Shown here one piece after another: positions 12,935 to 15,399 of a DNA stretch of 64,000 nucleotides. The position numbers and the translations under genes were made by a program. The DNA is from Roseateles depolymerans (GTDB lineage: Bacteria; Pseudomonadota; Gammaproteobacteria; Burkholderiales; Burkholderiaceae_C). The notes under the pieces are model-generated. The model saw only the letters and a list, made by a program, of their open reading frames with translations. It had not been told where the DNA came from and searched no databases. The stretch covers positions 75,771-139,770 of the forward strand of contig QFOD01000011.1 of assembly GCA_003241055.1 (NCBI GenBank), given 5' to 3'. How positions within the stretch are numbered: the first letter of the stretch is position 1; every line of letters starts with the position of its first letter.

Positions 12935-13912
12935 TTACATGAACAGGTGCTCGCCGGCGTTCTCGCCGCCCAGGATCACGTAGTTCACCTTCTTCAGGTC
13001 GGCCAGCTGGGTGCCGCCGGCGTAGGAGATGGAGCTCTGCAGGTCTTCCTGCATCTCGCGCAGCGTGTCGGCCAGCCGGCCCTTGACCGGCTCCAGGATG
13101 CGCTTGCCTTCCACGTGGCGGTACTCGCCCTTGTTGAAGTCGCTGGCCGAGCCGTAGTACTCCTTGAAGAGCTTGCCGTCGACCTCGACGGTCTTGCCGG
13201 GCGACTCCTCGTGGCCGGCGAACAGCGAGCCGATCATCACCATGGACGCGCCGAAGCGGATGCTCTTGGCGATGTCGCCGTGGTGGCGGATACCGCCGTC
13301 GGCGACGATGGGCTTGGTGGCCACGCGGGCGCACCACTTCAGCGCCGACAGCTGCCAGCCGCCGGTGCCGAAACCGGTCTTGAGCCGCGTGATGCAGACC
13401 TTGCCCGGGCCCACGCCGACCTTGGTCGCGTCGGCACCCCAGTTCTCCAGGTCGATCACGGCCTCGGGCGTGCCCACGTTGCCGGCGATCACGAAGGCCT
13501 TGGGCAGCTTGTGCTTGATGTGGGCGATCATGCGCTGCACGCTCTCGGCGTGGCCGTGCGCGATGTCGATGGTCAGGTAGTCGGCGCCCACGCCGTCGGC
13601 GGCCAGCCGGTCCACCAGCTCGTAGTCGGCCGGCTTCACGCCCACCGACAGCGACACCAGCAGCCCCTTGGCGCGCATGCTGCGGGCATAGGCCAGGCTG
13701 TCCAGGTCGAAGCGGTGCATCACGTAGAAGTAGCCGTCGCGGGCCAGCTGTTCGGTGATGGTTTCATCCACCACGGTCTTCATGTTGGCCGGCATCACCG
13801 GCAGCTTGAAGCGGTGGGGGCCGAACTGCACGGAGGTGTCGCAGTCGGCGCGGCTGTCCACGCGGCACTTGCGCGGCAGCAGCAGGATGTTGTCGTAGTC
13901 GAAGATTTCCAT
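12935..13912 (-). CDS. guaC: GMP reductase
   Basis: [47 protein letters not shown]. Confidence 0.95.
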
Positions 13913-14013
13913 GGTTCAAGTTCGCATGTGTCGGTGCGCGTTGAGGCAGTGCGCGACCTCGGCTGCGAGCGCTTGACTTGGCTCTTCCGGCCCTTGCCCG
14001 GCGTGTTGCGGGC

Positions 14014-14046
14014 AAAAAAAACCGGACGCCAAAATTTGGGCCCGGT
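14014..14046 (-). terminator. Intrinsic terminator in the guaC 5' leader (putative attenuator)
   Basis: Minus strand ACCGGGCCCAAATTTTGGCGTCCGG followed by T8. Confidence 0.75.
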
Positions 14047-14051
14047 GATTG

Positions 14052-14057
14052 ATTCTA
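14052..14057 (-). promoter_or_regulatory. Sigma70 -10 element of guaC
   Basis: TAGAAT; the same CGTAGAATCAAT 12-mer occurs upstream of the antitoxin gene (26670-26681); -35 is weak. Confidence 0.6.
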
Positions 14058-14088
14058 CGCGTTTCGAGGGGTGTGCCAGGGATATCCC

Positions 14089-15399
14089 TTAGTGCCCGAA
14101 GAAGCGGCGGTGTATGCGCCGGGTGGTCCACCACACGCCGGCCAGCACCAGGGGCACGGCCAGGCCGGTGGCCAGCTCGGGGCTGATGGGCAGCCAGCCC
14201 TCGGTCTTCAGCGCCTTGAGCCCGTAGGCCACGAGGCTGACCACGTAGTAGGTAATGGCCGCCAGCGACAGCCCTTCCACGGTGGCCTGCATGCGCAGCT
14301 GGGTCTGCTGGCCCTCGCCGAGCTGGCTCAGCAGCTGCTGGTTCTGCGCCTCGGTGGCGATGTCCACGCGGGTGCGCAGCAGGGCGCTGATGCGCCCGAT
14401 CCGCTCCGACAGGCCCGACAGCCGGCCCGCCGCGGCCGACACGGTGGCGATCGCGGGTGACAGCCGGCGCTGCATGAACTCGCCCAGCGTCTGCACGCCG
14501 GGCAGCTTGCCCTCGTGCAGCTCGGCAATGCGGCGCTCCACGATGGCGTGATAGGCCTCGGTGGCGCTGAAGCGGTACTGGTGCTCGGCCGTGGCGTGCT
14601 CCACCTGGGCTGCGGTGGCGATCAGCGCGTCCAGCAGGGCCGATTCGGACACGTTGCGCCGCTCCAGGCCTTCCGTGATCTCGGCGAGCTGCGTCTCGGC
14701 GCGGGAGAGCATGGGGGTCAGGGCTTTCGCGACGGGCAGGCCGCGCAAGGCCATCAGCCGGTAGGTCTCCAGCTCCAGCAGCCGCTGGCAGACACGCCCG
14801 GCGCGCGACGGCGGCATGCCGGGTTCGGCGATGACGACGACATGCTCGAAGCCCGTGCCGCGCAGCTGGAAGTCCGCCAGCACCAGCGAGTGCCAGCCGC
14901 CCATCGTGGAGGCGAACACGGCGTCGTCATCGAACCAGGCGCTGCCCTCGCGGTAGGCATGGGCCGGGCTGTCCATGGTGCGCTCCAGCATCAGCACCTT
15001 CATGGCGGCCACGGTGCGGCCCGGGATCCGGCTCAGCCACTCGGCGCTGACCTCGGGCTGCAGGGCGTCCAGCGTCGCGGCCGAGGGCAGCGTGCCGGCC
15101 GGCAGCGGCTGCACGATGGAATAGCGGGTGAACTCGCTGTGACGTTCCCACTTCAGCGAGAAGCCGTCGAAGCGCAGGCGCAGGAAGTTGCCGGACAGCT
15201 CATCCAACGCCAGGTGCTGCTGGCCGGGGAGGGCGCTGAGATGGGCATGCTCCTGCGCGCGGCTGATGCCCTCGTTGAGCACCGCCACATAGGTGACGAG
15301 GGCGGGCAGGGCGATGCGCGCCGACGGTCGGGCATGCACTTCGTTGTGCAGCACCAGGCGAAGTTCGTCGTTCTGCGGAAGCAGCAAGGCTTGGCTCAT
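14089..15399 (-). CDS. DUF3422 family membrane-anchored protein
   Basis: LHNEVHARP, WERHSEF, QRLLELETYR, TVEGLSLAAITYY plus two C-terminal TM helices. Confidence 0.85.
   Translation of the reverse strand: MSQALLLPQNDELRLVLHNEVHARPSARIALPALVTYVAVLNEGISRAQEHAHLSALPGQQHLALDELSGNFLRLRFDGFSLKWERHSEFTRYSIVQPLPAGTLPSAATLDALQPEVSAEWLSRIPGRTVAAMKVLMLERTMDSPAHAYREGSAWFDDDAVFASTMGGWHSLVLADFQLRGTGFEHVVVIAEPGMPPSRAGRVCQRLLELETYRLMALRGLPVAKALTPMLSRAETQLAEITEGLERRNVSESALLDALIATAAQVEHATAEHQYRFSATEAYHAIVERRIAELHEGKLPGVQTLGEFMQRRLSPAIATVSAAAGRLSGLSERIGRISALLRTRVDIATEAQNQQLLSQLGEGQQTQLRMQATVEGLSLAAITYYVVSLVAYGLKALKTEGWLPISPELATGLAVPLVLAGVWWTTRRIHRRFFGH

Follow-up and report, generated by a model that had tools for sequence, protein, structure and literature searches.

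The question raised by this locus is whether the first nucleotide chosen by RNA polymerase decides if transcription reaches guaC, the gene for GMP reductase. The sequence-only reading had proposed that a promoter upstream of guaC runs directly into a terminator hairpin and that the ratio of ATP to GTP, acting through the start site, determines whether the terminator forms. In the window analysed here (the whole stretch of 64,000 nucleotides from a Roseateles depolymerans contig), the sequence contains each of the minus-strand parts then named, i.e. the -10, spacer, start window, hairpin, U8 tract and second stem, at the positions given for them, and, as had been stated, the stretch that begins at A6 and closes with the U tract measures 33 nt. 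Both gene assignments were also upheld, the downstream ORF scoring above equivalog cut-offs as GMP reductase (PRK05458, 578 vs 344 bits; TIGR01306, 529 vs 466) and the upstream ORF matching DUF3422. In transcript order, with bases numbered from the first base after the -10 hexamer, the features are:

14089..15399, minus strand: the upstream DUF3422 gene, an inconstant neighbour (domain match and neighbour counts in relatives).
14074..14079, minus strand: a -35-like hexamer, CTGGCA (4/6), from the promoter scan; no -35 is conserved in relatives.
14052..14057, minus strand: the -10 hexamer TAGAAT, with a conserved GCG just before it (sequence, promoter scan and relatives).
14047..14051, minus strand: the 5-base spacer CAATC, of fixed length and with variable letters except C5 (C5 in 115/120 relatives).
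14043..14046, minus strand: the predicted start window A6-C7-C8-G9, which is also the base of the terminator stem (A6 = 14046, G9 = 14043).
14021..14046, minus strand: the predicted terminator hairpin P1 (7 bp, a bulge, 4 bp; -14.7 kcal/mol, z -3.5).
14014..14021, minus strand: the U8 tract directly behind the stem (sequence; U-rich in relatives too).
13994..14015, minus strand: a second hairpin, TTGCCCG/CGGGCAA, a likely spacer (sequence and length vary among relatives).
13977..13993, minus strand: downstream CCGG ... CCAAG, alternative-helix partner of the terminator 3' strand (covariation).
13967..13976, minus strand: the conserved YCAAG-YGYYY element, with two possible partners (relatives, covariation).
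13916..13976, minus strand: a long helix covering bases 4-14 ahead of the start codon (folding; in other lineages its pairing partner is GGAG-CUUGG).
12935..13912, minus strand: guaC, GMP reductase type 2 (325 aa; ORF and TIGR01306/PRK05458 scores).

The guaC start codon lies 134 bases after A6 and the terminator hairpin ends 108 bases before it.

The arrangement of a promoter leading straight into a terminator at guaC is real and far from chance. The promoter scan returned a single site (CTGGCA-16-TAGAAT) against 0.1 in shuffled sequences, and the energy of the hairpin folded from A6 was equalled in 1/200 shuffles. A simple terminator scanner found no terminator in the guaC leader, probably because of the bulge in the stem; folding and the relatives both display the G+C-rich stem with a U tract right after it that characterises an intrinsic terminator. 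Across the genome, there were 409 strict -10-like hexamers, of which two were followed by a hairpin beginning at positions 6-8 and a U run, one of these being guaC and the other looking like the inside of a tRNA gene.

Type-2 guaC genes numbered 227 in the genus and family, and upstream DNA was examined for 132 of these, chosen by protein in sets of 24, 28 and 80, the last of which was taken down a ranked list. The core CCGGGCCCA, searched for without reference to any promoter, was present at 108/132 loci, and its first C fell at position 7 after a TANNNT -10 hexamer in all 108, bearing out the conserved spacing between the -10 and ACCGG that an alignment had been expected to reveal. A looser anchor placed the element at 120/132 loci (two of them, L053 and L130, mis-anchored in the table), with 12 loci lacking it, and the loci behind these counts are kin. 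Positions 1-4 of the spacer are variable, C5 is probably a promoter base since it is unpaired in the terminator, A6 is present in 116/120, and no -35 is conserved (positions -32 to -10, upstream of the hexamer, carry <0.3 bits). Hairpins in the relatives span 25-39 nt and leaders about 42-217 nt; at least six of the eight bases after the stem are T in 91/102 relatives with the closing CCGGT, and a U tract is missing from at least 22 of 161 long leaders. The U-tract labels on the GuaC tree are unreliable and did not enter these counts.

Within the hairpin, the base and the upper stem appear to have evolved differently. The basal A-U and C-G pairs were each retained in 105/105 leaders with no compensatory change, a count partly forced by the anchor pattern. 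The upper stem has been rewritten in eight leaders that lost a downstream module described below (L063, L064, L091, L093, L098, L107, L110 and L119), all of which keep the -10, the spacing, ACCGG with its partner, and the U tract. On a GuaC tree made by a quick method, in which 67/135 forks are unresolved, these eight occupy about five separate positions, and the predicted fixed stem base beneath a rewritten upper stem holds. Were the stem passive, its base could covary as well, and these leaders are the best natural experiment in favour of start-site choice.

The reading that we prefer, with a probability of about 0.6, is that a nucleotide-sensitive choice of start site gates the predicted intrinsic terminator ahead of guaC. 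With plentiful ATP (or CTP), RNA would start at A6 (or C7), the full stem would abut the U tract, and transcription would terminate after about 33 bases. An A6 start would require ATP and then CTP, a C7 start CTP, and a G9 start GTP twice, such that an excess of GTP over ATP or CTP would shift initiation to G9, where the first bond is G-G. Three base pairs would then be lost, GG would part the stem from the U tract, and polymerase would read on. In the read-through RNA, the downstream CCGG/CAAG segment may capture the terminator 3' strand, and the freed G9-C12 may hold the YGYYY strand off the ribosome-binding region while that region is being made. GMP reductase would accordingly be produced when GMP should return to IMP. 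In E. coli, guanine induces guaC, whereas adenine represses its expression.

Which bases are likely to serve as starts was judged from the source genome, in which the ATG codons of long ORFs fall at positions 6, 7, 8 and 9 after -10-like hexamers in 5, 69, 23 and 19 of 155 cases, with control hexamers giving a three-base reading-frame pattern only. Many ORFs of this genome appear leaderless, the 69 cases at position 7 being of this kind, and when the ATG peak is read as leaderless starts, position 7 becomes the modal start. Starts in E. coli fall at positions 6-9 in 8, 55, 29 and 7% of cases, according to the accessible part of PMC5730371. The guaC promoter has C at both 7 and 8, so that C fills the two best start positions and A6 (or C7) would compete with G9; the purines A6 and G9, each preceded by a pyrimidine, occupy the two weak ones. 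Liu and Turnbough reportedly found in 1994 that C is the poorest initiating base, and the promoter thus combines alternative start bases at positions 6-9 with a poor initiator at the preferred position, as in pyrC- and pyrD-type control. Because position 7 is modal in the source genome, C7 may serve as an OFF start alongside A6, in which case the sensor would weigh GTP against ATP and/or CTP. The original proposal of A6 as a start is consistent with the conservation of that base, but A6 need not be the sole OFF start, given the use of position 6 in 5/155 cases and the modal position of C7.

Predicted hairpin energy declines with the start position, from -13.5 kcal/mol at C7 to -10.9 at C8 and -8.9 at G9, and over the folded leaders a G9 start costs the stem about 5.8 kcal/mol (3.6-6.4, n=149). 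Intrinsic termination requires a stem adjoining the U tract, and the bases directly behind the stem change from TTT in 147/149 leaders to GGT in 148/149 with the G9 start. Since the shortened stem can stay strong in the predictions, at -8 to -20 kcal/mol, read-through from G9 would come mainly from the GG placed between stem and U tract. The loss of basal pairs, to which the sequence-only reading had attributed read-through, does occur in the folds, and is probably not the main cause.

The nearest known bacterial systems are pyrC and pyrD of E. coli and Salmonella, for which CTP/GTP-sensitive start-site selection is described in the accessible part of PMC6524683. So far as that text describes them, the guaC leader resembles both in having starts a few bases apart past the -10, extra 5' bases that complete a hairpin, and a G start as the ON state (both the starts and their effect being predicted for guaC), and the skipped 5' bases of guaC do form the base of the predicted hairpin. 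In the pyrC and pyrD leaders, again within the text available, the hairpin hides the ribosome-binding site, whereas the guaC hairpin is U-tailed and leaves the ribosome-binding region to a separate module, with the same predicted accessibility for both starts. guaC also differs in that it serves purine recycling, and its invariant A6 makes ATP a likely further input. The guaC leader is not considered a member of the pyrC/pyrD group, since its hairpin is a predicted terminator lying 108 bases ahead of the start codon and since it gave no match to the Rfam models. Yeast IMD2 offers a second likeness: whether transcription of a guanine-nucleotide gene ends early depends there, as is predicted for guaC, on starting with G or with A. 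As described in the accessible part of PMC11323793, it differs in that Pol II scans across tens of bases and in that the terminator depends on a protein. The sign is also opposite, IMD2, which makes GMP, being OFF at high GTP in that account and guaC, which consumes GMP, being predicted ON, so that the guaC leader would be, if the preferred reading is correct, the bacterial mirror image of IMD2.

A second conserved module is evident from the alignments at 13993-13916, and was overlooked in the sequence-only reading. It was assessed in 185 leaders (119 protein-selected and 66 pattern-selected, identical ones removed), and downstream CCGG ... CAAG-YCAAG-YGYYY was found in 161 of them. Its first part pairs with the terminator 3' strand through matched changes (TCTG/CAGG 11 times, ATTG/CAAT 6 times, CTTG/CAAG 30 times), with a mismatch in about a sixth of rows; a leader's own partner outperformed swapped partners in 117/160 leaders, by a mean of -2.35 kcal/mol, and eleven leaders without a U tract have swapped the terminator 3' strand and its partner together. 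The YCAAG-YGYYY element can pair either with G9-C12, C14 and position 17, forming an alternative helix, or, as folding indicates, over the ribosome-binding region. The pairing of G9-C12 in 161/161 leaders was forced by the search pattern; an unforced anchoring, which placed 149/167 long leaders and missed 18, gave G opposite C12 in 146/149 and a pyrimidine opposite G11, G10 and G9 in 146, 148 and 146/149. The base opposite C8 was G in only 63/149, and the retention of a partner for G9 but not for C8 marks G9 as the end of the conserved alternative helix. There is also covariation between position 17 and the first base of YCAAG (A-U 75, G-C 85, one mismatch), mostly as one split on the GuaC tree. 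The stem TTGCCCG/CGGGCAA at 13994-14015 had been suggested to stabilise read-through RNA; the stem is present, and with its variable sequence it looks like a spacer bringing the downstream module up to the terminator 3' strand. Within the long helix, at 13930-13965 of the window (minus strand), the window's branch of the family conserves an inner helix whose unpaired bases, ACTG and CAAC-like, are constant; it is retained even in L086, which is otherwise module-less. An antisense promoter at the conserved GTCAAG was considered and dropped, since the matching -10 position is variable by eye.

In the energy model, the terminator 3' strand is in the hairpin with probability 0.80 from A6 and 0.29 from G9, and with its downstream partner with probability 0.16 and 0.64 respectively, the ribosome-binding region being unpaired at 0.30 for both starts. 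Transcripts cut just past the module already form the alternative helix from A6 (mean 0.62, vs 0.92 from G9), and on full leaders that helix costs a median of 7.0 (A6) or 4.1 (G9) kcal/mol. These models do not support a translational tier acting as an equilibrium switch, and because they show no clean switch, such a tier, if any, would operate through the order of cotranscriptional folding, a ligand or a protein. The idea that leaders without a U tract would be the more start-sensitive failed (5/22 vs 39/139).

The module is the basis for an explanation that is unlikely but carries some weight, namely that the start is fixed (A6 or C7), the terminator merely damps, and a guanine nucleotide or protein stabilises the downstream alternative helix, freeing the ribosome-binding site. 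Several observations fit: the alternative helix contains invariant unpaired bases (C13 opposite Y in 161/161, and A15-A16 opposite CAA in nearly all), it would need 4-7 kcal/mol of help on full leaders, and 22 leaders keep the module with no U tract, of which the terminator model alone gives no account. Further, CCAR at positions 13-16 occurs in 161/161 leaders with the module and 10/24 without, for which reason it is assigned to the module and not to the terminator. Such control does not explain why module-less leaders in about five lineages keep the exact spacing, ACCGG and the U tract, none of which a passive damper needs, and the module has not yet been made when the terminator acts. A combination of both ideas is rather unlikely, in which a two-tier GTP sensor within 130 bases would gate the terminator by start choice and then, through binding of a guanine nucleotide to the long helix that the G9 RNA forms starting at its first base, free the ribosome-binding site. 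The nucleotide would bind at the internal loop of that helix, which is invariant (a C-Y mismatch, a C-G pair and AA facing CAA), and a start-site switch and a new riboswitch class would then stand in series.

An aptamer embedded in the terminator itself seems quite improbable. The conserved CCAA near the hairpin tip recalls the class of terminators with conserved tip bases, and riboswitches of the HMP-PP type and of the guanidine-IV type are likewise short terminators of this type in the accessible part of PMC8632094. Unlike those, as far as they are described there, the guaC tip can be rewritten, as happened where the downstream partner was lost with the base unchanged, and what is invariant is a base-exact spacing from the -10 for which an aptamer has no need; there was also no Rfam match. 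About as improbable is a weak constitutive promoter followed by a fixed leaky terminator or a 5'-protecting stem, with no nucleotide sensing: a stem starting at +1 would fix the spacing as well, but its base never covaries while the upper stem does, and the end of the alternative helix at G9 would be left unexplained.

Reiterative transcription of the pyrG type, in which RNA begun at G9 reads GGGC and would, at low CTP, gain further G residues that build an antiterminator, is very improbable. In the B. subtilis pyrG attenuator the first nucleotides likewise decide an intrinsic terminator, and GGGC after C, which most guaC leaders have, fits the pyrG requirements (10.1101/732214, accessible part). 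Slippage from one start builds the antiterminator of pyrG in that account, whereas the guaC start bases, and hence the 5' end itself, are a strand of the terminator, and there is no conserved pyrimidine-rich partner for extra G (the base after YGYYY is G in 63, A in 51, T in 19 and C in 16). G11 has moreover been lost in L063, L110 and L222 with the rest intact.

Scarcely credible is the case that the sequence-only reading had named against itself, in which the hairpin is only the terminator of the DUF3422 gene and guaC has a separate promoter downstream. The hairpin lies 43 bases after the DUF3422 stop in the source genome and may also end that mRNA there, but DUF3422 is upstream in only 14/119 protein-selected leaders (a divergent fabH in 22/119), so that this function cannot explain the hairpin's retention, and past the hairpin 0/185 leaders show another strict -10 hexamer, which largely refutes termination of DUF3422 as the sole role. 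The spacing, at 25-39 bases, is too variable for the inverted repeat to be the site of a DNA-binding repressor, and that reading was set aside.

Most of the sampled members of one large bacterial family of soil and water carry the guaC leader. A loose pattern matched 120 times over the genome collection, 72 times upstream of guaC in Comamonadaceae-type genera (e.g. Comamonas, Acidovorax, Variovorax, Polaromonas, Rhodoferax, Ideonella and Roseateles), with the remaining 48 scattered over unrelated taxa among the matches listed. A strict pattern over metagenomes had guaC downstream in 111/120 matches, with six too short to tell and three others. The element was absent from nine loci that encode close GuaC homologues and belong to three further families of the order, from the upstream region of E. 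coli guaC (type 1) by eye, and from the plasmids searched; in a class-wide sample, type-2 guaC occurred in 1/397 genomes outside the family, with an AT-rich upstream region lacking the element. The Rfam comparison that had been proposed gave four weak, unrelated matches in the window, far below the gathering score, and Rfam 15 (including the PyrC, PyrD and PyrG leaders and purine riboswitches) had no match at E<=1 in 20 relatives.

In the literature searched, which did not extend to subscription journals, there was no description of the guaC leader and no bacterial case of start-site choice gating an intrinsic terminator or serving purine balance. Searches by guaC and GMP (reductase) terms found nothing on the leader in the main texts of PMC4448216, PMC6431027, PMC11953324, PMC6524683, PMC11109978, PMC8632094, PMC5737381 and 10.64898/2026.10.21.760802; the supplements of PMC11109978, PMC5737381 and the 2026 preprint may list the motif. 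The supplements of PMC8632094 and PMC2864571 contained no guaC leader, the matches in PMC2864571 being RNA letters. The family-wide leader is thus apparently undescribed so far. If start-site gating is correct, RNA polymerase itself would measure the balance of GTP to ATP/CTP and thereby fix how much GMP reductase is made, no regulator protein being needed, by an element that is small and widespread at the sampled loci of the family. Natural variants with the terminator alone or the downstream module alone make the two tiers separable, and the leader could serve as a compact purine-ratio sensor.

Several further observations were made on guaC leaders. A G directly before the -10 hexamer occurs in 93/120 guaC promoters, compared with 9% at other such hexamers in the source genome (window 14060-14058), and may tune promoter strength or start choice. 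Two loci of family f13, L264 and L267, have GuaC proteins nested inside the family clade on the tree, yet short leaders without the element, possibly reflecting transfer of the guaC gene without its regulator. More distant guaC genes of the same order (about 52% identical; L277-L286, family f243) share a different conserved leader about 60-220 bases before the start codon, in which a promoter of the TTGAC type and a structured, G+C-rich segment are joined by a strong terminator with a U tail and, behind it, a TTGGGG run that is near-invariant; Rfam gave a generic terminator-like match only, and this leader is itself a candidate for a riboswitch-like attenuator. In L002, L004, L007, L008, L013, L017, L020, L032, L033, L035 and L036, the terminator 3' strand and U tract after hairpin position 20 have given way to a near-identical segment, rich in G+C, with several hairpins; the genomes that carry it are scattered over several genera, and their close relatives have the U-tract form, which suggests exchange of leader alleles, and there is no other copy in their own genomes. 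Finally, a G+C-rich palindromic segment is inserted just before the guaC start codon in L006, L021, L022, L023 and L068, and is probably a REP-like repeat because four similar stretches occur elsewhere in its own genome.
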